64,000 bases of DNA from Thermoanaerobaculia bacterium. GTDB lineage: Bacteria > Acidobacteriota > Thermoanaerobaculia > Multivoradales > JAHEKO01. The stretch covers positions 18,070 to 82,069 of the forward strand of contig CAMYLC010000067.1 in assembly GCA_947259195.1 (NCBI GenBank). Direction: 5' to 3'. Positions 48,176 to 60,822 of this stretch are shown here, in pieces. Under the pieces are notes generated by a model that was given only the letters and a program-made list of their open reading frames with translations, did no database searches and was not told where the DNA came from. Positions within the stretch are counted from its first letter, which is position 1. Each line of letters begins with the position of its first letter. The translations under genes were made by a program, and so were the position numbers.

Positions 48176-49566
48176 TGTTTCGGCGCTTCACCAACCTGGC
48201 GGCAGTTCACTTCATCGGCATTGGTGGGGCCGGTATGAGTGGCATCGCCGAGGTATTGCTGGACTACAACCTGGAAGTGAGCGGCTGTGATCAGTCCATG
48301 AGCGAGACGACAGAGCGACTTGCGAAACTCGGTGTGACTGTCTATCAGGGACATTCTGCCGCGCATGTCGAGACGGCCGATCTGGTCGTGATCTCCTCGG
48401 CGGTATCGAGAGACAACCCGGAAGTGGTAGCCGCCCACCAGAACAATATTACCGTGGTGCGCAGAGCCGAGATGCTGGGCGAGCTCATGCGCTTGAAGTA
48501 TGGCGTCGCCGTGGCGGGAACCCATGGCAAGACGACGACGACCTCGTTGATCGGGACTGTGCTGACGGAAGCGGGACTGGATCCGACGGTCATCGTGGGC
48601 GGTCGCCTGAGGGTCTCGGGCACCGGCGCTCGGCTGGGTAAGAGCGAATACCTGGTCGCCGAGGCCGATGAGTACGACCGCAGCTTTCTCAGGCTGCAGC
48701 CCATCCTGGCGGTGGTCACTTCGATCGACGAGGACCACTTGGACACCTACGCGAATCTGGACGAGATCCGTAAAGCCTTCGTGACTTTTGCTGGCAAAGT
48801 GCCGTTCTTCGGCCAGGCCATTCTCTGCCTGGACGACACCAATATCCAGGAGCTCCTGCCTCAGTTGAAGCAAGAGCACCGGGTCGTGACCTATGGACTG
48901 TCGCCGCAAGCCGATCTGAGAGCGACGGAGTTCGAGAGCACGCCCGCTGGATCTCGGTTCCAGGTCGTCGATTCACGTCAGGGCGAAATGGGGACGATCG
49001 AGCTGCCGATGCCGGGCCTGCATAATGTGCGCAACTCCCTGGCCGCGATAGCCGTGGGACAGGCGATGGGCGTTCCCTTCGTCAGCATCGCTCGGGCACT
49101 GGCGGGTTTCTCGGGTGTACATCGAAGGTTCGAGACCCGCGGTGTGTGGCGGGGCGCCAAAGTCATCGACGACTACGCCCATCATCCGACCGAGGTGACG
49201 GCAACTCTCGAAGCCGCTCGACAGGCCTTCCCGGGAGCCGTGATTCACGCCATCTTTCAACCGCATCTTTTCTCGCGGACTCGCCATCTGGCTCTCGAGT
49301 TCGGGCGTTCGCTGTTGGGGGCCGACAAGGCCGTGGTGACGGACATCTACCCGTCGCGGGAGCAGCCTGAGCCGGGAGTGACCTCCGATCTCGTGGTCGA
49401 GGCTGCCAGGCAAAGCGGTCACCGCGATGTCCGTTCCTGTGCCGACTGGCGGGAGGTCCCTCCAATGCTGGCGGCAGATGTCCAAGAAGGGGATGTGATC
49501 TTGACCCTCGGAGCCGGCGATATCTACCGCTTGGCGGAGCTGCTCGTTGCGGAGGGTGCGAGATGA
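48175..49566 (+). CDS. murC: UDP-N-acetylmuramate--L-alanine ligase
   Basis: The ATG at 48175 overlaps the murG stop. VHFIGIGGAGMSGIAEVL, VAVAGTHGKTTTTSLI, DDYAHHPTEV. Confidence 0.9.
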   Translation: MFRRFTNLAAVHFIGIGGAGMSGIAEVLLDYNLEVSGCDQSMSETTERLAKLGVTVYQGHSAAHVETADLVVISSAVSRDNPEVVAAHQNNITVVRRAEMLGELMRLKYGVAVAGTHGKTTTTSLIGTVLTEAGLDPTVIVGGRLRVSGTGARLGKSEYLVAEADEYDRSFLRLQPILAVVTSIDEDHLDTYANLDEIRKAFVTFAGKVPFFGQAILCLDDTNIQELLPQLKQEHRVVTYGLSPQADLRATEFESTPAGSRFQVVDSRQGEMGTIELPMPGLHNVRNSLAAIAVGQAMGVPFVSIARALAGFSGVHRRFETRGVWRGAKVIDDYAHHPTEVTATLEAARQAFPGAVIHAIFQPHLFSRTRHLALEFGRSLLGADKAVVTDIYPSREQPEPGVTSDLVVEAARQSGHRDVRSCADWREVPPMLAADVQEGDVILTLGAGDIYRLAELLVAEGAR

Positions 49567-50369
49567 AACCGCTAGATCTCCAGGTGTCGAGCCCGAGCCC
49601 GTTTCGGCGACGGCGATTCGTCGCGCCGCATCGGCGTCGCAGCCAAGTGCTGATGTTGGCACGACCCTTTCTGACTGCGCTACTGCTCGTCGGTCTGCCG
49701 GTAGCTGGAGGAGCCTGGGTCCTCACATCGCCCCGCTTCCTGCTCGACAACATCGTGATCAGTGGCACGAGTCGAGTTCGACCTTCCGAGGTCGCCGAGG
49801 CCCTGCGATCGCTGCGGGGAAAGCACCTTCTATTGGTCTCGCTTGCTGACGTGGAGAGTCGACTCTCCCAGAACCGATGGATCGAAGGGGCCAACCTGCG
49901 CAAGAAGATGCCCAACAGCCTCGTAGTAGAGGTCAAGGAGAGGCAACCGGTCATCCTGTTGAGGCGTGACGAAGGTCTTTTCTATGTCGATCGGAGTGGC
50001 ACCGTGATCGATCTCTATGATCCGGCGCGAGAGGCGGACCTGCTTTTGCTGAGTGTTGCCCCGGGTGTCGAATTGGAGGTTTGGCCAGCGCTCGCCATCG
50101 CAGCAGAGCTGGAACTGGTGGCGCCGGACTGGGCGTCGGGCCTGTCGGAGGTCGAGGTTTTGGGAGGAGATGATTTTCGACTCTTTACGGCGGCCCTGCC
50201 GTTTCCGGTACTGGTAAGTCTCGGCGGAGTCGGAAGACAGGTCAGGAAGTTCAGGCTAGTGATGCCCGAAATCGCCCGTCGGTACGACCGGGTCTCCGCG
50301 GTCGACCTTCGTTTCTCACGTCAAATCGTTGTTCAACCCGCGGTGGACCCGCGTAGTCAGGAGGGGTGA
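49563..50369 (+). CDS. ftsQ: Cell division protein FtsQ (POTRA domain)
   Basis: 268-aa bitopic ORF with a basic N-terminus, one TM and a POTRA-like segment (IVISGTSRVRPSEVAEAL...NLRKKMPNSLVVEVKERQP). Positioned between murC and ftsA. Confidence 0.75.
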   Translation: MKPLDLQVSSPSPFRRRRFVAPHRRRSQVLMLARPFLTALLLVGLPVAGGAWVLTSPRFLLDNIVISGTSRVRPSEVAEALRSLRGKHLLLVSLADVESRLSQNRWIEGANLRKKMPNSLVVEVKERQPVILLRRDEGLFYVDRSGTVIDLYDPAREADLLLLSVAPGVELEVWPALAIAAELELVAPDWASGLSEVEVLGGDDFRLFTAALPFPVLVSLGGVGRQVRKFRLVMPEIARRYDRVSAVDLRFSRQIVVQPAVDPRSQEG

Positions 50370-51616
50370 GGCTTATGCCCAAGGCGGACTCATACATCGT
50401 TGCCATCGACATCGGATCTTCGAAGGTCGGAGTGTTGATCGGGCAACGGGACGAGCGACAAGCTCTCGAAGTAGTTGGCAAAGGCGTCGCCCTCAACCGA
50501 GGGTCCCGTAAAGGGAACATCGTCAATGTCGAGGCGACGGTCGATGCTCTCAAGCAGGCCACCGAAGAGGCAGAGGTCATGGCCGGCATCGAGGTGTCGA
50601 GGGCCTTTGTCGGCGTGGCCGGAACCGATATCCGCAGTATCAACTCCCGCGGCATGGTCTCGGTGGCCAAGAAGGACCAGGACCGGGAGATCACGCGACA
50701 GGACATCAGTCGCGTCCTCGAGGCAGCGCAGTCTGCGGCGCTGCCCTCGGATCGCGAGATCCTCCACGCCATCCCGCAGGACTTCATCGTCGACGAGCAG
50801 GGTGGAATCTCCGATCCCATGGGGATGCTGGGAAGTCGCCTCGAGGTCGCAGTGCATCTGGTGACCGGCAACATCACTCGCCGCAAGACGCTGCTGACCT
50901 GCATCAATCGGGCTGGCATCGAAGTCATCGAGCTGGTATTCGAGCCCCTCGCCACGGCCGAGGCGGTCCTCACCCACGATGAGCGGGAGCTCGGGGCCCT
51001 GCTGCTCGATATCGGCAGCGGGACTACCGAGTACGCGGTCTTTGGTGATGGAGAGGTGCAGCACAGTGCGGTCCTGCCGGTAGGTGCCGGGCACTTCACC
51101 AACGACCTCGCCATGGTTCTGCGCACCCCTTTTGCGGAGGCCGAACAGATCAAAGTCAAGCACGGTTGCTGTCTCGGCGGCATGGTCGGCGAAGAAGAAG
51201 GCATATCGGTGCCGACGGTAGCGGGCGGGCCGCCGAGGGTCGTTCCCAAGCGGGAGCTCTGCGGCATCCTGCAGCCGCGGGCCGAGGAGATGTTGACTCT
51301 GGTGAGAGAGGACCTCTCCAAGTACGGCTTGGACGAGACTCTGCGCGGTGGTCTGGTGCTGACAGGAGGCGGCGCGCAGCTCGACGGCTACCTCGAATTG
51401 GCCGAGCAGGTATTCAACTGCACGGTCCGCTACGGCCTGCCTCAGCACCTGGCCGGCCTGGTGGACGTGATCAGCTCCCCGACCTGGACAGCGGCCTCGG
51501 GCCTGCTGCTCTACGGTCGAGGCGCGGAAGACCGACAACGTAGGACTATAAACACAGGTTTCAGCGTGCGTGGAGTGGTGACCAGTCTCCGCGGCATGTT
51601 CTCGGATTTACTGTAG
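50366..51616 (+). CDS. ftsA: Cell division protein FtsA
   Basis: 416-aa ORF; the start is either GTG 50366 or ATG 50375. Actin-fold motifs [44 protein letters not shown]-terminal amphipathic tail is present. Confidence 0.9.
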
Positions 51617-51648
51617 GAAGTAGAACCACCCGGAAGGAGAACAAGACA

Positions 51649-52896
51649 ATGATTCTATTTGACGATCACGAGATGGTAGGCAGTCTCCCCATCACCTTGG
51701 AAGAGGCGGAAGGCACGGCGGCCAAGATTACCGTCGTCGGCGTCGGTGGCGGTGGGGGAAACGCGGTGAACCGGATGATCGACTGCCAGATGCGAGGCAT
51801 CGAGTTTATCGCCGGCAATACCGACATGCAGGCGCTGCGGAAGTGTAGCGCGCCTGTGAAGCTCCAATTGGGCCCAACCCTGACCAGGGGTTTGGGCGCC
51901 GGCGGCGATCCGGAGGTAGGTCGCAAGGCGGCCCTCGAGGACACTGAGCGAATTCTGGAGCTTCTGGACGGTTCCGACATGGTGTTTCTCACGGCTGGAA
52001 TGGGTGGCGGGACCGGTACCGGAGCCATCCCGATCGTCGCGTCTCTGGCCGCTGAGCTGGGAGCTCTGACGGTAGCTGTCGTGACCAAACCCTTCACCTT
52101 CGAAGGCCGTCGACGCATGGAGATGGCGGAACGTGGAATCGAAGAGCTGCGGGGTGCGGTCGACACCCTGATCACCATTCCCAACGAGAGATTGCTCAAC
52201 TTCGTGGAGCGTGGAACGCCGCTCAACGAGGCCTTCCGCATTGCCGACGATGTCCTTCGCCAGGCGGTGCAAGGTATCTCCGATCTGATTACCGTGCCTG
52301 GCGAGGTCAACGTGGACTTCGCCGACGTGAAGACCATCATGACCGGTATGGGCATGGCACTGATGGGCACCGGCGTGGCCAAGGGCGAGAGCCGGGCCAT
52401 CGAGGCCGCCCAGCGCGCCATCTCGTCGCCCCTGCTGGAGGAGACCTCAGTCGAGGGCGCGAAGGGGGTGCTCATCAATATCTCCGGTGGCTCCGATCTG
52501 ACTCTTCACGAGGTGGATGAGGCGGCCAAGGTCATCGCTGAGGCAGTGGATTCGGCGGCCAATATCATCTCCGGTCTCGTCATCGACGAGTCGATGGAGG
52601 AAGAGATGAAGGTCACCGTGATCGCCACTGGCTTCCAGGTAGCAAATGCACCCATCTATAGCCAACCGTTCCTGCCCGCGGCCGAGAGTGACGAACCGGT
52701 CTATCCGCCAGAGCCGGTCGGGCCCGAGATGCAGGCAGAGCCAGAGCCGGTAGCCGAGGAGAAGGAGGAGGACATTCCGTTCTATCGCAAGGTAATCGCG
52801 CAGACCCAGCAGGACGACCCCAATGGTTACGGGCCGAACTGGTCGAACGTCGACGACTTCGACATTCCGACGGTGCTGCGGAAACAGATGGACTAG
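51649..52896 (+). CDS. ftsZ: Cell division GTPase FtsZ
   Basis: 415-aa ORF. Tubulin signature [17 protein letters not shown], and the conserved C-terminal peptide [12 protein letters not shown]. Confidence 0.95.
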
Positions 52897-53008
52897 AGGG
52901 GAAGACAGGGAGCACTAGGCGTATCGAGAGCAGCAGGCAGCAAGGCTGAGAATTCGAGTTGTCACTCTCGACGACTCCAGACTTCCGGGTGGATCGTCTC
53001 CAGGTGAA

Positions 53009-53605
53009 ATGGGCTTCACCTCCGCACGTGAACGACGACTGTGGATCTTGGCTGGCAGCTGCCTGCTGCTCATTTATTCTTCACTCTACATCGCCAGGCC
53101 CGTCACCAACTGGCTGCGGGACGCCAACTTGTTGCGCTTGGCAGTCGCAGGGGCCTTCCTCCTGGCAGCAGCAGGGGTTGGCCTCGGGCTTCTTCGGAGT
53201 CGCCCCGGGTGGCGTGTCTGGGTGGCGCTGGCAGGCATTGTCGCGGGCTACGTGGTTCTACTCTCTCGATTCGACCTACCCGAAGAGCGGCTTCACTTTC
53301 TAGAGTACGGACTGGTCGGCGGCCTGTTGTTCACGGCTCTTCTGGAGCGGCAGAAGAACACCAGGGGAGAATCCGGAGAGCTGTCGAGTCGCCGCGCCTT
53401 CCTTTGGCCGGCGGTTGGAGCCTTCGTCATGACGGGCCTTGCGGGGTGGATCGATGAGTGGATCCAGGCGGTCTTGCCCAACCGGTTCTACGATCTCAGG
53501 GACGTCGCCATGAACGCGGCGGGCGGGGCCCTTGCCGTGCTCTCGATCTGGGGTCTCGACCGCCTTCGCCAGATAGGTGAAAGGCCTCGGACCCGAGGTT
53601 TGTAG
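53009..53605 (+). CDS. VanZ-like membrane protein
   Basis: 198-aa ORF with ~5 TM helices. HFLEYGLVGGLL and DEWIQAVLPNRFYDLRDVAMNAAGGALAV match the VanZ family pattern. Confidence 0.6.
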   Translation: MGFTSARERRLWILAGSCLLLIYSSLYIARPVTNWLRDANLLRLAVAGAFLLAAAGVGLGLLRSRPGWRVWVALAGIVAGYVVLLSRFDLPEERLHFLEYGLVGGLLFTALLERQKNTRGESGELSSRRAFLWPAVGAFVMTGLAGWIDEWIQAVLPNRFYDLRDVAMNAAGGALAVLSIWGLDRLRQIGERPRTRGL

Positions 53606-53709: not shown

Positions 53710-54237
53710 ATGGAACAAGGTTTCGACGAGGCAAAGGCCCAACGCAATTGGTTGGAGCGATTGGGAGAGAAGATTCCCGGTTTCCGAGGCTTCCAGGATC
53801 GGGAGCTTCGAAGAGATGTCGACAAGTTGCAGCGCGAGTATCTCTCAGGCCAGGTGACGAAGGCCAAATCCACCCTTCGCAAGATTGCCGAGCGCTATAC
53901 GGATGCCGGCAAGATTGGAGTCCTGCATCTGTTCGACCGGCTCGACAAGCGATTGGATGGTCTGGCCCGGGCCATTCAGTTCAGCGATTATGGTGCGTCG
54001 GGCTTCTTCGATGTGATCAAGGTCGATGAGGCGGCTCTCGAGGAGCTTTATCGGTTCGATCTCGCTCTATTGGAGGAACTGTCGGGACTGGCTGACGACG
54101 CCGCAGCCATCCCAGCGCCCGCCGCCGGCGACCCAACGGAGGCTCTGGAGGTAACTCTAGATCGCCTCCAGCGACTGGAAGACAGGTGGGCGTTGCGGGA
54201 GAGCGCCGTCAACAAAGTCGTGCAAACAACAGGCTGA
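53710..54237 (+). CDS. Hypothetical soluble all-helical protein (first gene of the 53.7-60.8 kb cluster)
   Basis: 175-aa ORF with GGAGGG upstream of the ATG. There is no TM or signal peptide, and it has charged heptad-like helices (RELRRDVDKLQREYL, LDRLQRLEDRWALRE). I recognise no family. Confidence 0.5.
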   Translation: MEQGFDEAKAQRNWLERLGEKIPGFRGFQDRELRRDVDKLQREYLSGQVTKAKSTLRKIAERYTDAGKIGVLHLFDRLDKRLDGLARAIQFSDYGASGFFDVIKVDEAALEELYRFDLALLEELSGLADDAAAIPAPAAGDPTEALEVTLDRLQRLEDRWALRESAVNKVVQTTG

Positions 54238-54265: not shown

Positions 54266-55306
54266 GTGATGAAGGTCATTCAATATGTAGACAGTACAGG
54301 CCAGACGATGGTAGCCAGGGTTCCCCGGCAGGGCACCGAGGCAATCAAGCTGGGTAGCCAGTTGATTGTCGAAGAGAGCCAGGAAGCGGTTTTCTACCGC
54401 GATGGCAAGGCTCTCGACACTTTTCGACCCGGTCGCCACACGCTCGCCACACAGAACTTGCCTCTGCTGGCAGGCCTGCTGGGGGTACCCTTCGAGGGAA
54501 AGTCGCCCTTCCAGGCGGCGGTCGTCTTCGTCTCGACGAAGACCTTTCTGGATCTCAAGTGGGGCACCAAGGAGCCGGTCGTCTATCGGGACAATGAGCT
54601 GGCGATGGTGCGGCTACGGGCGTTCGGCAAATTCGCCGTTCGCATCACCAACTCGCAGGTCTTCGTCAACGGGGTCGTCGGCACCATGGGGGTGTACACG
54701 ACCGATGGCGTGGAGTCCTACTTCAAAGACGTCATCGTTGCTCGCCTGACCGATGTGCTGGGTGAGAATCTGCAGTCGATTTTCGATCTGCCGAAGGTCT
54801 ACGACGAGCTGGCGATGGCACTGAAGGCCCGCGTCGCTGACGACTTCTCGAAGTACGGCATCGAACTGGTGGATCTCTACCTCGGCGCCATTACACCGCC
54901 GACCGATGTCCAGAAGCTCATTGACGAACGTGCCGGAATGGCCGCCGTGGGCGACATGAACGCCTACCTGAAATTCAAGGCTGCTCAGGCCATGGGCGAT
55001 GCAGCTCAGCAGTCGGGTGGAGAAACGGGAAGTGGGGTCGGAGCCGGCCTCGGAGTTGGCATGGGGGCGGGGATGGGCATGATGCTGCCGCAGATGATGA
55101 AGGAGGCGATGACCGATTCCGGTGGCGGCCAGGCTGCACCAAGTGAGCCAGCGACGGAGGGCCAGTCTCAACCCACGGGAGACGCCGCGGCTCCCGCAGC
55201 AGCGGGGACCGCTGCAGCGGCAGCCGCCTTCTGCCATTCCTGCGGTGGCAAGCTACCTACAGGTTCCCGGTACTGCCCCAGCTGCGGTACCAAGGTCGCC
55301 GAGTGA
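54266..55306 (+). CDS. SPFH/Band-7 family protein of the YdjI ('virion core protein'-like, Band_7_1) type with C-terminal zinc ribbon
   Basis: 346-aa ORF with AGGAGGA upstream. LIVEESQEAVFYRDGKALDTFRPGRHTL, KWGTKEPVVYRDNELAMVRLRAFGKFAVRI and GIELVDLYLGAITPP match my recollection of B. subtilis YdjI-type SPFH proteins. It has a Gly/Ala-rich linker and a terminal CHSCGGKLPTGSRYCPSCG. Confidence 0.8.
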   Translation: MMKVIQYVDSTGQTMVARVPRQGTEAIKLGSQLIVEESQEAVFYRDGKALDTFRPGRHTLATQNLPLLAGLLGVPFEGKSPFQAAVVFVSTKTFLDLKWGTKEPVVYRDNELAMVRLRAFGKFAVRITNSQVFVNGVVGTMGVYTTDGVESYFKDVIVARLTDVLGENLQSIFDLPKVYDELAMALKARVADDFSKYGIELVDLYLGAITPPTDVQKLIDERAGMAAVGDMNAYLKFKAAQAMGDAAQQSGGETGSGVGAGLGVGMGAGMGMMLPQMMKEAMTDSGGGQAAPSEPATEGQSQPTGDAAAPAAAGTAAAAAAFCHSCGGKLPTGSRYCPSCGTKVAE

Positions 55307-55370: not shown

Positions 55371-56135
55371 ATGGCGACGGAGTTGAAAGACAGGGGTTTC
55401 GTCTGCACACAGTGCGGTGGAGAAGGCGACCTGGAGTCGGGCCAGCGCTTCTTGACCTGCCGGTTTTGTGACGCGACACTGTTCGTCGATCGATCGGGCG
55501 TGGTCAGCCACTACCGTCTGCCCCGTCTGTTGGGAGCAGATGAAGCCGAGGCGGCCTTGCGGCGGTGGATGGCTGGCAACGACACGGTCAAGGACCTCGA
55601 CAGCAAGAGCGGAATCGAAGCTGTCGAGGCGATCTCGTTTCCAGTGTGGCTCTTTCGGGTTCAGGCTGCCGGTGGAGAAGAGGTCTTCATCGAGCCGGCC
55701 GCTCCCACGACAATCCCGCAGTTGGCCGACTTCAAGCTGCCGGCCGGCAAGCTCGAGCCCTATCAAGCTGAAGAAGAAGTTGTCGAAGCGACCCCGGAGA
55801 CGATCCCTTTGGAAACCGCTCGGGGTTGGCTGGAACAGCGCGAGCTGGGTCGAGCGACCGAGACGGCTTTGGTACAGCTACCGCTCTGGAGATGTCGCTA
55901 TAGCTTCGAGAACCAGTCCTACCTGGCTCTGGTTGATGCCTCCACCGGCGCGGTGATGGCGGCCGTCTTCCCGGAGAAGGCCGAGAGCCCCTACTTCCTG
56001 GTCGCAGCTCTCGGGATCCTCCTCTTCACGATCGAGGGGTTGGCGATCTCCAACCCGGCCGCGAAGTTCGTGACCTACCTGGTTACCGCGATACCCCTTC
56101 TTCTACTAGCCTACTGGGTGGCCCGCAAGATATGA
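55371..56135 (+). CDS. Zn-ribbon membrane protein, paralogue 1 (CxxC-x14-CxxC, two C-terminal TMs)
   Basis: 254-aa ORF. CTQCGGEGDLESGQRFLTCRFC, then FPVWLFRV and LPLWRCRYSFENQSYLALVDASTG. The C-terminus has two hydrophobic helices. Confidence 0.6.
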   Translation: MATELKDRGFVCTQCGGEGDLESGQRFLTCRFCDATLFVDRSGVVSHYRLPRLLGADEAEAALRRWMAGNDTVKDLDSKSGIEAVEAISFPVWLFRVQAAGGEEVFIEPAAPTTIPQLADFKLPAGKLEPYQAEEEVVEATPETIPLETARGWLEQRELGRATETALVQLPLWRCRYSFENQSYLALVDASTGAVMAAVFPEKAESPYFLVAALGILLFTIEGLAISNPAAKFVTYLVTAIPLLLLAYWVARKI

Positions 56136-57256
56136 CCGAAGCCGTAGATTCTCCGGACACCGCACAGGTGCCCGATCGGGAGACCGAGGCCACGTTCGCG
56201 GGACGGGTCGAGGGCCTGAGCTGTCCGAGCTGCGGCGGAGCCCTCGACGTGGTGACAGGTCTGCGGGTAGTCACCTGTCCCTATTGTGAGAAGTCGCTCC
56301 TCGCCACTCCGGAGGTGGGCGTACGACGCTGGGTAGTCAAGCCGAGGCTCGGTGTCGACAAAGCTCGTGAGCTCGCCAAGCGTTGGCTATCGCAAGGCTG
56401 GAGCAAGGACGCGCGATTGCGACGCGAGGCCGAGACGGGCGAAGCCATCCTCTGCTTCCTGCCGTTCTATCGAGTGGAGGCCGACTGCATCGGTTTCGCT
56501 CTCGGTACCGAAGAGCGCCGTCGGACGGAAGGCTCGGGAAGCCATCGACGGCAAGTGGTCGAGGAGGTCGATGTGGAGCGGTCATTGGCCAGGAGCTTCG
56601 ACCGTACCTATCCGGCCCTCAACGTGGCGGAGTGGGGAATCCAGAGAATCGACCTGATGGGAGACGAGATCGTACCCTACGACGGGGTAGTTCTCGAGGG
56701 ACACGGCATGGTCTTCCCACCGACGGGCTCCGAAGTAGCGGTCAAGAAAGCCGCCATCGAGCAATTCAAGCTGCAGTCGGATCCGGCCAGAGGTCTCAAG
56801 CGGGTGCGCTTCCGTCATCTCGAGACTCTGCGAGAGCGTCTCAGTGTCGTCTACTACCCGCTCTGGGTCGTGCGCTATCGCTTCAGGAACCGTTCTTATC
56901 AACTCCTCATGGACGCCGAGGATGGATCGCTGGCTTATGGCAAGTCTCCCGGCAACGACTTGTTCCGAGCCGTCATGCTCGTCGGGTCGCAGGCTGTGGC
57001 CTTGTTCTTGGGGACAACGGCTTTGCAGCTGCTGGGCGGTAGCCCCGCGGGTCTTCTCATCATCGGTGGCGCCGTGGTCCTGGCCTTGACCTGGGGCTGG
57101 CGGCGCTTTCGCCACGGTGGAGTGGTGATCGAGGGTACAGGAGTCGATCCGGAGTTGGATCTGGGGGAGGCCTGGAGCACCCTGACGGATCGTGACGCCC
57201 AGGAGCAGATCCTACGTGACCTCATGCAGGGGCGCCTGCCGGAGATCGGTCGATGA
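56132..57256 (+). CDS. Zn-ribbon membrane protein, paralogue 2 (CxxC-x14-CxxC, two TMs, cytosolic tail)
   Basis: 374-aa ORF with an ATGA overlap to the upstream gene. CPSCGGALDVVTGLRVVTCPYC, FLPFYRVEA and YPLWVVRYRFRNRSYQLLMDAEDG are clearly alignable to paralogue 1. It has two TMs near aa 280-330. Confidence 0.6.
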   Translation: MTEAVDSPDTAQVPDRETEATFAGRVEGLSCPSCGGALDVVTGLRVVTCPYCEKSLLATPEVGVRRWVVKPRLGVDKARELAKRWLSQGWSKDARLRREAETGEAILCFLPFYRVEADCIGFALGTEERRRTEGSGSHRRQVVEEVDVERSLARSFDRTYPALNVAEWGIQRIDLMGDEIVPYDGVVLEGHGMVFPPTGSEVAVKKAAIEQFKLQSDPARGLKRVRFRHLETLRERLSVVYYPLWVVRYRFRNRSYQLLMDAEDGSLAYGKSPGNDLFRAVMLVGSQAVALFLGTTALQLLGGSPAGLLIIGGAVVLALTWGWRRFRHGGVVIEGTGVDPELDLGEAWSTLTDRDAQEQILRDLMQGRLPEIGR

Positions 57257-57879
57257 CCGTCGGCATCGAGTTCGCTCTCATTCCGCTGGACTGCCCGACC
57301 TGTGGAGCGGGAATCGACGCTCAGGGAGAAGATGTCGTTTACTACTGCACGGCCTGCCGCAACGGCTATCTCCTAGATGAGTCGGACTGGTCTCTGCGAC
57401 TCATCGACGCCTCCTTCGTCGCAGCAGCCCACCTCCAGGCAGAGGAATACAAGCCGTTCTGGCTCCTGCCGGCCAAGGTCGACATCGTTGACCGTCAGGC
57501 GAGCGGTGGAGGTTTCTCCGGTATCCTGCGCACGTTTTTCGGCAAGGACCGGACCCTCGACGAAGCCGGCAAGGGGGTCTTCGCAGTGCCGGCATTTCAC
57601 GCATCGCTCGAGTCGGTGACCCGCCTGGTACGCAGCTATACCGAAGCGCTTCCCGAGCTGAAGGAGAAGCTGGGCGAGCGTCTGCTGGGAGGGTGCTATG
57701 GGCGGCAGGATGCCGAGAAACTGGCTCACTATGCCCTGATTGCCACGGAGGTGGAAAAGCCCGACAAGCTGCTGGAGCTGAAATACGAAATCGAATTTGG
57801 TGAGCCCCGCCTTCTCGGAGTTCCTTTTTACAAGAAGGGTGATACCACTTTGGACGCCATCTTCGACATCGAGGTTTGA
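57253..57879 (+). CDS. Zn-ribbon protein, paralogue 3 (CxxC-x14-CxxC, soluble)
   Basis: 208-aa ORF with a 4-nt overlap to the upstream gene. CPTCGAGIDAQGEDVVYYCTAC, then KPFWLLPAKV. No TM segment. Confidence 0.55.
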   Translation: MTVGIEFALIPLDCPTCGAGIDAQGEDVVYYCTACRNGYLLDESDWSLRLIDASFVAAAHLQAEEYKPFWLLPAKVDIVDRQASGGGFSGILRTFFGKDRTLDEAGKGVFAVPAFHASLESVTRLVRSYTEALPELKEKLGERLLGGCYGRQDAEKLAHYALIATEVEKPDKLLELKYEIEFGEPRLLGVPFYKKGDTTLDAIFDIEV

Positions 57880-57982: not shown

Positions 57983-58819
57983 GTGAAGGAAACGACAGGC
58001 ATGATTATCGATGGCGTCGAGCTCTTTCTGAGCACTCCGGTAGAACAGGTTCCGCCCTGGGTCGGACAGCGTGAGGTCCTGATGCAGTTGCTCGCCGCCT
58101 GGTCGCGGGTGGAATCCGCAGATTTCCCCCTGAACCCGCGCCTCCTGGGGAAACCCGGTGTGGGGAAGACCACCCTCGCTTGTGCTGCTGCTCGAGAGCT
58201 GGGTCTGGATATCTACATTGCCCAGGCCACCATGGATACGCGCCCCGAGGACCTCATCGTCTCGCCGGTCCTGGCGAAGGAAGGTGGGGTTCGATACATG
58301 GCTTCGCCCTTGGTCAGCGCCATGGTTCGGGGCGGAGCCATGATTCTCGACGAAGGGAACCGAATGAGCGAGAAGTCGTGGGCATCCCTGGCTCCCCTGC
58401 TCGATCACCGGCGCTACGTGGAAAGCCTGGTGGCCGGAGTTCGTATCCCGGCGCATGACGACTTCCGCTTCGTGACCACCATGAACGAGGATGCCTCGAC
58501 CTATGAGCTGCCCGGTTACATCCACTCCCGACTGATGCCACAGATCTACATCGACTTCCCCGAGGAGGACGAAGAACGGGAGATTCTGCGTGCCCAGGTG
58601 CCGTTCGCCGACACTGAGGTCGTGGAGTACGTCTTGTCGTTCCTCCGGGCGGCACACGATCGCGACCTACGCTATACGGTTCGCGACGGCATCAATCTCG
58701 TGCGCTATGCCATGAAGCTTCTCAAGCGGGGTGAAGCTGAGAACGCACCCGATGCGGTCGATGCGGCCCTGAGACTGTCCGTGGGCGACGAGCAGATGGA
58801 GGAGTTCGAAATCTCGTGA
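57983..58819 (+). CDS. MoxR/NorQ/CbbQ-like AAA+ ATPase (AAA_5 type)
   Basis: 278-aa ORF with a GTG start (alternative ATG at 58001). Walker A LLGKPGVGKTTLA, Walker B AMILDEGNR, sensor-like FRFVTTMN and a helical lid. The size matches NorQ/CbbQ-type MoxR ATPases. Confidence 0.8.
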   Translation: MKETTGMIIDGVELFLSTPVEQVPPWVGQREVLMQLLAAWSRVESADFPLNPRLLGKPGVGKTTLACAAARELGLDIYIAQATMDTRPEDLIVSPVLAKEGGVRYMASPLVSAMVRGGAMILDEGNRMSEKSWASLAPLLDHRRYVESLVAGVRIPAHDDFRFVTTMNEDASTYELPGYIHSRLMPQIYIDFPEEDEEREILRAQVPFADTEVVEYVLSFLRAAHDRDLRYTVRDGINLVRYAMKLLKRGEAENAPDAVDAALRLSVGDEQMEEFEIS

Positions 58820-60822
58820 GCCAGCCGAGCGGCGCTGGCGTCGATCTGGATCGACTGGCCCCCGAAGTGGGTGAGGGCATTCGCCTGCTGCCGGTGGTTC
58901 ACGAACGCGTCGAGTTGGCCAGCGTCGCCCGGGCGGTACTCGAGGCCGTAGATCCGGCGGCGGTGGCCGTCGAGCTGCCGACAACCCTGAGGGAAGCGGC
59001 GGTCAGGGCCGTCGGGCGGCTTCCCCGGATCTCGCTGGTGATCTCGGAAGAACCGGGGTACCAAGCCCTGGTGTGGGTCGTGGCACCCGGTGACCCCCTG
59101 GTCGAGGCCATCCGCTGGGCGCTCGATCGTGACAGAGCCCTTTTCTGCGTCGATCCAGATCTCCCATATGAGGAGAGGCACCTAGACCGCGTTCCCGACC
59201 CCTATGCCCTCTTTCAGATGGGCGCGAGCGACTATCTCGAGAGCCTGCAACTCGGTCTGGAAGAAGGGGGCAAGTCCGAGGCCGATGATCGTCGAGAGTC
59301 GGGGATGGCCTTCCATCTTCAGCAGGCTCGCGACGAGATCTCTGGCCCCATTGTGGCATTCGTCGGAGCGGCCCACGTAGAGGGTGTCCGCTCCCGGGTG
59401 GGGGCACCCCTGGCGCATCCCTTTGCTCGTACGCGGCGCAATCGGGTTCTGGTGCGACACTTGGCTCCCAACAGTCTCACAGCACTGCTTCCGGATGCGC
59501 CGTTGGCACACGCCGTCTGGGAGCGAGTTCGGGAGGGTGAGGTTCCGGCTGAGACGGATCTGGGATCGACTCTCTCGCGTCGCCAATCCGTGATGCGCTT
59601 CGGCCTGCGAGTGATCCAAGGAGAGCGGGGGAGCGACGACGCCAACCGCGGAGAGAAACTCGTGGACTATGCCAGCTGCCTGGGAACTCGAGAGGCCCTT
59701 GGCGGCCGGTTGGCTCCCGATCGGGCACGCCTTGGCGGGGTCGTCTGGCGCATCGCAGCCGGCTCGTACACTGAGCAGACCGGCGAGTCGGCGGCCGCTT
59801 GGCAACGGAGAATGTTCTTCGACTACTCTCGGCGCTGTGCCAGGGTGCAGGGCAATCTGATACCGGGACTCTATGAATGGGTGATCGCGGCGCGCGGCGT
59901 CGGCGATGACAATCTCGCCTGGGAGGTCTTCGACGCATCCCGGACGTATCCCTGGCAGAAGGACCACGCAGAGATCGAGACCGCTTCCGTCGATGGGGAC
60001 GAACTGGATCTCGGCACGCGCTCGATCCGTTTTCGGCGTCGATTCTTTCGCGTCAAGCAGCGGCCGATCGCCGTCCCTGTGCGGCAGCACCCGCAAGCCG
60101 AAAGTCCGGAGGACTGGCTGCGGGCGTTCGATTCGTCAGGCCTGTGCTCCTACCCGCCGGAGGACCTTGTTGTCGAGGATTACGGGTGCTTTCTACAGAA
60201 GAAGGCCCTCTCGGTGCTGTCAGCGGAGCGCAAAAGGACCGAGCCATTCACCAGCAGCTTGCTGGACGGGATCGACGTTCGGGAGACGCTTCGCAACGTC
60301 CATGAAGACCGGATCTATGTGGAAGAGAAGGGACAAGTGCCGGGTGATGCAGGATCGGTGGTGGTCGTCTTCGATCGAGACTTGGACAACGAGCGGTACC
60401 CCTTTGCCATGACCTGGTTGGGAGAGCACGATCAGGAATCGGATATGGCGTTCTATGCGACGAATCCGGCGGACCAGGTGGTGGGTCCCGGAATGATGCG
60501 GGCGACCTACGGCGGTTTCGTGTTGACGCAGCCGAGGGGCAGGCTGTTCGATGTCTGGTCGGATGATGACTATCGACTCGCTCGTGGCAAGGCGGAGGTT
60601 CTGCTGATGGCCGCCGTCGACTACAGCCTCGAGAAGATCGTGGTGCATCTGGCGGCGGAGGCTCCCGCTGAGAGATTGCGCCGCTATGCCGCTGCTCAGG
60701 GCAAGCAGATCCTCCACATCCCGCTCGCCTCTCTCTCTCCCCTGAGCCTGAAAAAGATCCGTGTCATGCATATTCTTGCCGGCCGCGACAAGCGTGCTAT
60801 CGCGAAAGACTACATTTGGTGA
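58816..60822 (+). CDS. Large uncharacterised protein, N-terminus TraB/GumN-like, overall reminiscent of DUF5682
   Basis: 668-aa ORF with a GTGA overlap to the AAA+ gene. LLPVVHERVELASVARAVLEAVDPAAVAVELP, PLVEAIRWALDRDRALFCVDPDLP and IVAFVGAAHVEG resemble TraB/DUF5682 N-terminal patterns from memory. No TM and no clear MIDAS (DxSxS) motif. Confidence 0.55.
   Translation: MSQPSGAGVDLDRLAPEVGEGIRLLPVVHERVELASVARAVLEAVDPAAVAVELPTTLREAAVRAVGRLPRISLVISEEPGYQALVWVVAPGDPLVEAIRWALDRDRALFCVDPDLPYEERHLDRVPDPYALFQMGASDYLESLQLGLEEGGKSEADDRRESGMAFHLQQARDEISGPIVAFVGAAHVEGVRSRVGAPLAHPFARTRRNRVLVRHLAPNSLTALLPDAPLAHAVWERVREGEVPAETDLGSTLSRRQSVMRFGLRVIQGERGSDDANRGEKLVDYASCLGTREALGGRLAPDRARLGGVVWRIAAGSYTEQTGESAAAWQRRMFFDYSRRCARVQGNLIPGLYEWVIAARGVGDDNLAWEVFDASRTYPWQKDHAEIETASVDGDELDLGTRSIRFRRRFFRVKQRPIAVPVRQHPQAESPEDWLRAFDSSGLCSYPPEDLVVEDYGCFLQKKALSVLSAERKRTEPFTSSLLDGIDVRETLRNVHEDRIYVEEKGQVPGDAGSVVVVFDRDLDNERYPFAMTWLGEHDQESDMAFYATNPADQVVGPGMMRATYGGFVLTQPRGRLFDVWSDDDYRLARGKAEVLLMAAVDYSLEKIVVHLAAEAPAERLRRYAAAQGKQILHIPLASLSPLSLKKIRVMHILAGRDKRAIAKDYIW

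Follow-up and report, generated by a model that had tools for sequence, protein, structure and literature searches.

Predicted YdjG-like zinc-ribbon membrane proteins in a conserved gene trio next to an SPFH gene in Thermoanaerobaculia

Here, we analysed a stretch of 64,000 nucleotides from a Thermoanaerobaculia bacterium (GenBank assembly GCA_947259195.1, contig CAMYLC010000067.1, positions 18,070 to 82,069), hereafter called the window, which has a GC content of ~62%. Downstream of ftsQ-ftsA-ftsZ and a VanZ-family gene it carries seven consecutive open reading frames (ORFs) on the plus strand, the first five of which make up the cassette described here. The first cassette gene in the ORF list, g1 (53710–54237), encodes an uncharacterised, soluble protein of 175 amino acids without a membrane helix. 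It is followed by a gene for an SPFH protein of 346 amino acids (54266–55306), in which a Band_7_1 domain is joined by a low-complexity linker to a C-terminal zinc ribbon (CHSC-x10-CPSC); this protein is soluble and of the type of Bacillus subtilis YdjI, also called SamI. Three zinc-ribbon genes, here named A, B and C, complete the cassette, and their positions and lengths are those that an earlier inspection of the letters alone, the sequence-only reading, had listed. Protein A (55371–56135, 254 amino acids) is a short YdjG-like protein, in which an N-terminal zinc ribbon leads into a predicted cytoplasmic alpha/beta domain and two helices at the C-terminus form a membrane hairpin. Protein B (56132–57256, 374 amino acids) is its long paralog, with the same architecture plus a basic insert and a conserved cytoplasmic tail behind the hairpin, while protein C (57253–57879, 208 amino acids) is soluble and combines an N-terminal ribbon of the same type with an aromatic hairpin ('YxPFWLLPA'). 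Locus L003, from a Thermoanaerobaculia metagenome-assembled genome (MAG), is near-identical to the window, with a 98% match to protein A.

What do the three proteins have in common? All translations contain the shared CxxC-x14-CxxC ribbon that had been noticed in the letters: CTQC-x14-CRFC in A (residues 12–33, 55404–55469; C12, C15, C30 and C33), CPSC-x14-CPYC in B (residues 31–52, 56222–56287; C31, C34, C49 and C52) and CPTC-x14-CTAC in C (residues 14–35, 57292–57357; C14, C17, C32 and C35). The spacing is not a product of chance, since it is kept in 116 of 120 database homologs of A, 118 of 120 of B and 119 of 120 of C, and the ribbon cysteines are invariant in our alignments (A1 and A5 for A, A2 for B, A3 for C). 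It is, however, not specific to the trio, as both ribbons of B. subtilis YdjG also have the x14 spacing, and it is thus by itself no proof of paralogy. The aromatic blocks behind the ribbons (FPVWLF, FLPFYRV and KPFWLL) are present in A, B and C, respectively, and so is a second block in A and B; both kinds of block are aligned between A and B by BLASTP and hhalign. A hydropathy scan recovered the paired C-terminal hydrophobic helices in A (residues 209–227 and 233–251) and in B (approximately 277–299 and 300–318), while C has no membrane helix. The hairpin of A (residues 209–251, 55995–56123) is also seen in the AlphaFold2 (AF2) model, with helices at 202–225 and 229–253, and the hairpin of B (residues ~277–321, 56960–57094) pairs with that of A in hhalign. 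The AF2 models reached a predicted local distance difference test score of 85.7 for A and 69.8 for C. All three genes are linked by ATGA overlaps, which can be read directly at the A stop and B start (56132–56135) and at the B stop and C start (57253–57256).

The similarity of A and B is not limited to the cysteine pairs. BLASTP aligned the two proteins over their full length (E=3e-12), and hhalign gave a probability of 98.7% with our first profiles and of 99.8% with diverse profiles built from 46–47 sequences (E=1e-28, 248 columns, membrane hairpin included). Indeed, the value was still 98.7% after the ribbon columns had been deleted. Pairwise and profile alignment identify A and B as full-length paralogs, with the membrane hairpin as part of the shared region.

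The sequence-only reading had gone further and proposed that all three proteins are tandem paralogs that arose by local duplication followed by divergence, in which case C would have lost its membrane anchor. Only the A/B part of this proposal stood in full. BLASTP aligned C to A and to B in the ribbon alone, and narrow hhalign profiles gave 35–54%, confined to or dominated by the ribbon. Diverse full profiles raised these values to 94.9% against A and 94.5% against B, but in the ribbon-free control they dropped to 0.6% and 3.5%. In favour of a wider relationship, a hidden Markov model (HMM) of the C family, run on A- and B-type proteins of other organisms, aligned the ribbon and, after a gap of 21–30 residues at the site of the 'RRWMAGN' helix of A and B, the aromatic 'YLPFW' block, which supports the suggested equivalence of FPVWLF, FLPFYRV and KPFWLL. 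The AF2 models of A and C also show a similar order of elements, namely the ribbon, two strands, a long hairpin, a strand, helices and a three-stranded sheet. The N-terminal third of C, i.e. ribbon and aromatic hairpin, is thus probably homologous to A and B. For the rest of C, homology to A and B is not demonstrable by these alignments, and no relatives of its C-terminal half were detected beyond the C family. A local or recent origin of the trio fits the distribution poorly: A- and B-type subfamilies occur, always paired, in other phyla and in archaea at 23–45% identity, and the same three families already form a trio in distant phyla. Since both subfamilies are recognisable across distant homologs, the A/B duplication long predates this lineage. 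Altogether, we regard the derivation of all three genes from a local tandem duplication as doubtful.

To which known proteins are A and B related? The sequence-only reading had suggested a comparison with B. subtilis YdjG and YdjH, for which we used as reference a B. subtilis-type pspA-ydjG-ydjH-ydjI locus from a metagenome, located via a published ydjG primer sequence. For YdjG, the suggestion held. Profiles of A-type proteins matched YdjG in hhalign with 97.1–97.4% (E 7e-11; 84% ribbon-free) and profiles of B-type proteins with 97.7% (E 2e-12, 265 columns reaching into the YdjG membrane helix; 95.9% ribbon-free). YdjG contains two x14 ribbons, followed by blocks like those of A and B ('IPFWMF' and 'LLPVWMVSYDY...NGQTGKVVGKPP', including NGQTGKV). 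Residues 12–33 of A and 31–52 of B align with the second of these ribbons (residues 55–78), and the alignments as a whole span YdjG residues ~50–337, an uncharacterised region without a curated model; Pfam coverage of YdjG is limited to the first ribbon. On the strength of the ribbon, the homology of the post-ribbon alpha/beta domain and the C-terminal anchor, A and B fall into the YdjG/SamG family as judged by their sequences. The comparison with YdjH gave no match, as A, B, C and g1 reached at most 1.2% in hhalign, and YdjH itself hits Pfam TPM_phosphatase. Taken together, we hold the homology statements made here with high confidence.

Family libraries contribute little to this picture. Scans of A, B and C against Pfam, NCBIfam, PADLOC and PHROGs returned only generic, sub-threshold ribbon matches, and sequence and profile searches of the PDB with the three proteins returned only generic ribbons (RpoP, L37ae). 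The N-terminal 25–30 residues of A, B and C weakly match rubredoxin-type ribbons (RpoP/Rpo12, L37ae, TFIIB-type), for example the RpoP chain 4qiw_P, which matched the A-type profile with E=0.0015 in the ribbon only; the domains behind the ribbons are covered by no PDB, Pfam, NCBIfam or PADLOC entry. In the passages available to us, Ravi et al. 2024 describe YdjG as two ribbons, a YpeB-related NTF2-like domain and a membrane segment, and these passages do not mention an A-B-C trio or its PspA-free distribution. A Foldseek comparison of the AF2 models of A and C with the PDB yielded nothing at E<=1e-3, with YpeB (5boi) and YycI at E ~1; the YpeB/PepSY/NTF2 similarity was not reproduced at a useful score with the A model, for which 5boi ranked 30th (E=1.0, template modelling (TM) score 0.12). 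Against BFVD, the same model gave a borderline match to the Yasminevirus 'DnaJ-like subfamily C member 3' A0A5K0UBJ7 (probability 0.99, E=8.7e-3, 327 columns, TM score 0.38). Going by this model comparison, the YdjG-like fold could have a relative in giant viruses.

Two features distinguish B from A. Residues ~107–153 of B (56450–56590) form a basic, highly conserved insert, GFALGTEERRRT...EVDVER (in full FLPFYRVEADCIGFALGTEERRRT.GSG..RR....EVDVER), that is absent from A and could be a site of contact with the membrane surface or with a partner. Directly behind the hairpin, the cytoplasmic tail of B (residues 321–338, 57092–57145) carries the strongly conserved motif WGWRxFRxGGVVIEGTGV, in which the positions equivalent to F326, R327 and G329 are conserved in at least 91% of a diverse cross-phylum set of B-type proteins; C or the SPFH protein could dock at this motif. 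The residues conserved across phyla are mostly cysteine, glycine, proline and aromatics (Trp, Tyr), and we recognised no catalytic motif in this set, a pattern suggestive of a scaffold and not of an enzyme.

Is the trio a peculiarity of this lineage? A, B and C each have several hundred close homologs of 55–65% identity, all in Thermoanaerobaculia-like MAGs. The family as such is much larger: a joint A+B profile, searched with HMMER against 1.84 billion cluster representatives (50% identity clusters), matched 4,924 clusters at E<=1e-3, of which 1,524 reached E<=1e-10. Among the best 150 of the 4,924 clusters, a short A-type (~250 amino acids) and a long B-type (~330–380 amino acids) subfamily can be recognised, whose members are 23–57% identical to the cognate window protein and ~20–25% to the other one. 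We then compared gene neighbourhoods in 82 loci, annotated with family HMMs, of which 80 stem from a scan of one genome per species and two had been fetched earlier. As the scan used the A-type motif RWM[ANG][GS][NS]xTV[KE], the sample is biased toward A-type systems, and the conservation of this motif in the derived alignments is partly given by construction. In essentially all 82 loci the order A-B-C is found on one strand, with exceptions only at contig ends. These loci belong to Thermoanaerobaculia/Acidobacteriota (~35), Chloroflexota/Anaerolineae (~40), Ignavibacteria (4) and three archaeal-binned MAGs, assigned to ANME-2 (anaerobic methanotrophs), Methanoperedens and 'Methanobacteriota'. 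The 4-nucleotide overlap is present between A and B in 38 of 74 loci and between B and C in 49 of 76, and the other junctions mostly measure 12 nucleotides or less. Judged by these sequence comparisons, A-B-C is an ancient, widely conserved unit across several bacterial phyla and some archaea, and in the sampled loci the conserved core is A-B-C, usually extended to (g1)-SPFH-A-B-C.

An additional link between the genes comes from natural fusions. The C-family HMM, applied to the 150 representatives, uncovered three B::C fusions in three different 50%-identity clusters, P0432 (604 amino acids), P0447 (565) and P0499 (510), in each of which an entire C domain is appended to an entire B-type protein (domain E down to 4e-49). 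The contig of P0432 (L085:797-8847, assembly GCA_016926595.1) holds the arrangement of an A-type gene with a B::C fusion gene behind it twice in tandem (fusions of 604 and 606 amino acids), which makes a one-off sequencing artefact unlikely. Behind each copy lies an extra gene, one encoding a membrane-rich protein of 320 amino acids, the other a protein of 389 amino acids with a zinc-ribbon start and a weak DUF3592 match. A seeming SPFH::A-type fusion of 559 amino acids, P0444 (L086:1086-2765), proved to be an artefact and was discarded: it results from translating the neighbouring SPFH and A genes of a 3.6-kb contig across frameshifts.

Natural B::C fusions argue for a joint action of B and C. 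Zinc ribbons should lie in the cytoplasm, and a two-helix hairpin would hence return the C-terminus of B to the cytoplasm; the attachment of C behind the hairpin in the fusions fits such a topology. Paralog pairs that are ancient, always co-encoded and translationally coupled usually form hetero-oligomers, and on this ground we infer an A-B-C complex. A hetero-oligomeric membrane complex, as the sequence-only reading had envisaged, is also made plausible at the sequence level by the strictly conserved gene order, by the conserved start/stop overlaps and by the B::C fusions.

The SPFH protein connects the cassette to a studied system. It matches Pfam PF13421 (Band_7_1, E=3.1e-58) and Zn_Ribbon_1, shows no membrane helix in the hydropathy scan and aligns with B. 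subtilis-type YdjI over its full length, including the C-terminal ribbon (BLASTP, E=5e-22). The window cassette and the B. subtilis module thus share a soluble SPFH protein, YdjI/SamI in the latter, in which a Band_7_1 domain, a low-complexity linker and a C-terminal zinc ribbon follow one another. In 39 loci, namely all those of Acidobacteriota, those of Ignavibacteria and the archaeal MAGs, the gene immediately before A encodes a Band_7_1 SPFH protein. In 36 loci, from Acidobacteriota and two ANME/Methanoperedens MAGs, g1 in turn immediately precedes the SPFH gene.

In B. subtilis, YdjI is soluble and its membrane foci require both YdjG and YdjH, which interact; YdjH also contacts YdjI and PspA, and deletion of ydjG or ydjH causes shape defects under alkaline shock (PMC8581546). 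The dependence of YdjI on YdjG and YdjH for its place at the membrane is also reported in a preprint (bioRxiv 10.64898/2026.02.06.704340, 2026), in which the three proteins are called SamGHI and SamG and SamH are proposed to form a sensor complex that is held in check by SamI. The cassette of the window differs from this prototype, a membrane-stress module studied in part, in several respects. It contains no PspA gene (no PspA_IM30 hit in any cassette gene), the place of the single YdjG-like gene is taken by the ancient A/B pair and a third, soluble ribbon protein, C, and the SPFH gene stands first rather than last. The distribution differs as well, since modules of the window type occur in Acidobacteriota, Ignavibacteria, Chloroflexota and archaeal MAGs, while the B. 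subtilis prototype is found in Firmicutes. We conclude that the window cassette does not represent a new kind of system. It is a variant of the YdjG/YdjI (SamG/SamI) module that lacks both PspA and YdjH and in which the anchor is duplicated, and this variant is far more widespread than the Firmicutes prototype.

How might such a module work? In the explanation that we find best overall, and toward which we lean slightly, A and B are an ancient YdjG/SamG-family pair, in both members of which the zinc ribbon would lie in the cytoplasm, followed by the alpha/beta domain and the hairpin anchor, and the pair would assemble with C into one complex on the cytoplasmic face of the membrane. By analogy with the tethering of YdjI by YdjG and YdjH, this complex would dock and/or regulate the soluble YdjI/SamI-type SPFH scaffold encoded just upstream, and would thereby take over a role that is split between YdjG and YdjH in B. 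subtilis. The cassette would function without PspA and without a TPM-domain YdjH, and g1 would be an additional, uncharacterised partner. That the three proteins form a complex, dock the SPFH protein and act in membrane or envelope stress is in each case inferred; for the docking function alone, which is drawn from the B. subtilis analogy, we see the chances as about even.

Several observations weigh against this explanation. YdjG has an extra N-terminal TFIIB-type ribbon (PF08271, E=1.4e-11), while A and B possess a single ribbon and no PF08271 hit, and the membrane anchor is a two-helix hairpin in A and B as opposed to a single helix in YdjG. No TPM hit was found in the cassette, unlike in B. 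subtilis, where YdjH and not YdjG is the main two-hybrid hub for YdjI and PspA (PMC8581546). Besides the bias of the locus sample mentioned above, the Chloroflexota have to be considered, in which ~40 A-B-C loci show neither an SPFH nor a g1 gene within 7 kb. Linkage to an SPFH gene in cis is therefore no obligate property of the trio.

This last point is at the heart of the main rival reading, according to which the trio is an autonomous, membrane-associated zinc-ribbon complex with a function of its own, e.g. in membrane sensing or regulation, and with an optional SPFH link. A-B-C is indeed the sole unit conserved in all lineages. Around the Chloroflexota trios the neighbours vary, and the only recurrent one is an MFS_1 transporter gene downstream of C in 16 loci (L038-L073, e.g. 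L047:9489-10754) at a median distance of 10 nucleotides; an Hsp20 gene upstream of the trio in one Chloroflexota locus was not conserved. The C-terminus of the SPFH protein varies, too, with a single ribbon in the window, SHOCT in an Ignavibacteriota locus (L076:5901-6911) and a double ribbon in Methanoperedens (L082:1422-2663), and the C-terminal ribbon is thus exchangeable. On the other hand, YdjG, the only experimentally studied relative, works with an SPFH protein, the SPFH gene lies immediately upstream of A on the same strand in three of the four lineages, and Chloroflexota may encode an SPFH partner elsewhere in the genome. We consider an autonomous trio rather unlikely and retain the docking of the SPFH protein by an A-B-C complex as the preferred explanation.

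A further thought takes up elements of both: A-B-C might be a stand-alone, very old cross-domain complex beneath the membrane, made up of two hairpin-anchored YdjG-like paralogs and a soluble ribbon subunit that is in some cases fused to B. It might serve bacteria and archaea as a general platform for docking and sensing, used by soluble Band_7_1 SPFH scaffolds independently of PspA/ESCRT-III, with the YdjG arrangement of B. subtilis as a reduced derivative. We put this forward only tentatively and would not bet on it.

The combination of zinc ribbons, membrane helices and a nearby AAA+ ATPase gene might also recall a mobile island for anti-phage defence or of toxin-antitoxin type, or else a transcription regulator tethered to the membrane, be it anti-sigma-like or a DNA-binding ribbon protein of the TFIIB type. 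Zinc ribbon and membrane helix do occur together in anti-sigma factors, and DNA binding has been suggested as possible for the YdjG ribbon (PMC9239133). However, PADLOC reported no defence hits for g1, the SPFH protein, A, B or C, no sigma factor or regulator gene is conserved alongside, and in many Thermoanaerobaculia loci the cassette occupies a fixed chromosomal site behind ftsQ-ftsA-ftsZ-vanZ. The AAA+ gene and its partner are, moreover, missing from most related loci. A role as a defence island or transcription factor is unlikely, and we give this family of readings very little credence.

The genes in question are the sixth and seventh ORF of the series, which encode a MoxR-like AAA_5 ATPase of 278 amino acids (57983–58819, plus strand) and an unnamed protein of 668 amino acids with a weak DUF5682 match (E=0.065; 58816–60822, plus strand). 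The two genes overlap by 4 nucleotides. The same pair stands behind the cassette in some Thermoanaerobaculia (L003-L005, L012 and L015) and farther off in others (L009, L014, L016 and L032), while L001 and L002 have an E1 dehydrogenase gene in its place. The pair accompanies the cassette only in some Thermoanaerobaculia and lies outside the cassette core.

What do these results add to the understanding of bacterial SPFH proteins? The membrane recruitment of soluble SPFH/flotillin-like proteins and the processes that they regulate at the membrane are known in bacteria mainly from one B. subtilis operon. Here, the poorly characterised YdjG/SamG is placed within a large family without a curated model. 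The commonest conserved form of this family in the sampled loci is the three-gene unit A-B-C, which can be accompanied by an SPFH gene or lack one, can occur in the absence of PspA, and extends over at least three phyla of bacteria as well as MAGs of methane-oxidising archaea. Full-text literature searches, whose coverage is incomplete and whose silence is absence of evidence only, returned no description of the A-B-C trio, of the B::C fusions or of the archaeal occurrence. No surprising mechanism is demonstrated, and the use of these results lies mainly in SPFH and Psp research. They offer a testable hetero-complex, in which A, B and C would join the SPFH protein, natural fusions of B and C as a guide for structural work, and a way to separate an SPFH-docking role from the effector role of PspA.

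As to the first cassette gene, g1 matched NCBIfam NF047596, the LIMLP_15305 family of Leptospira, below threshold (E=5.7e-11, 42.6 bits against a cutoff of 210), and this sequence match suggests a broader g1-like family in spirochaetes; the only paper with the locus tag LIMLP_15305 yields no functional information. The idea of g1 as a PspA analogue was dropped at an hhalign value of 0.3% against PspA. A scan of the cassette for promoters and terminators found matches no commoner than in shuffled sequence. Finally, ftsQ-ftsA-ftsZ and the VanZ gene (49563–53605) lie directly before the cassette in the window, and likewise in L001, L002 and many of the loci L003-L034. This synteny is confined to the single class Thermoanaerobaculia, and it is of interest because ydjG and ydjH mutants of B. 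subtilis mislocalise cell-wall synthesis under stress.

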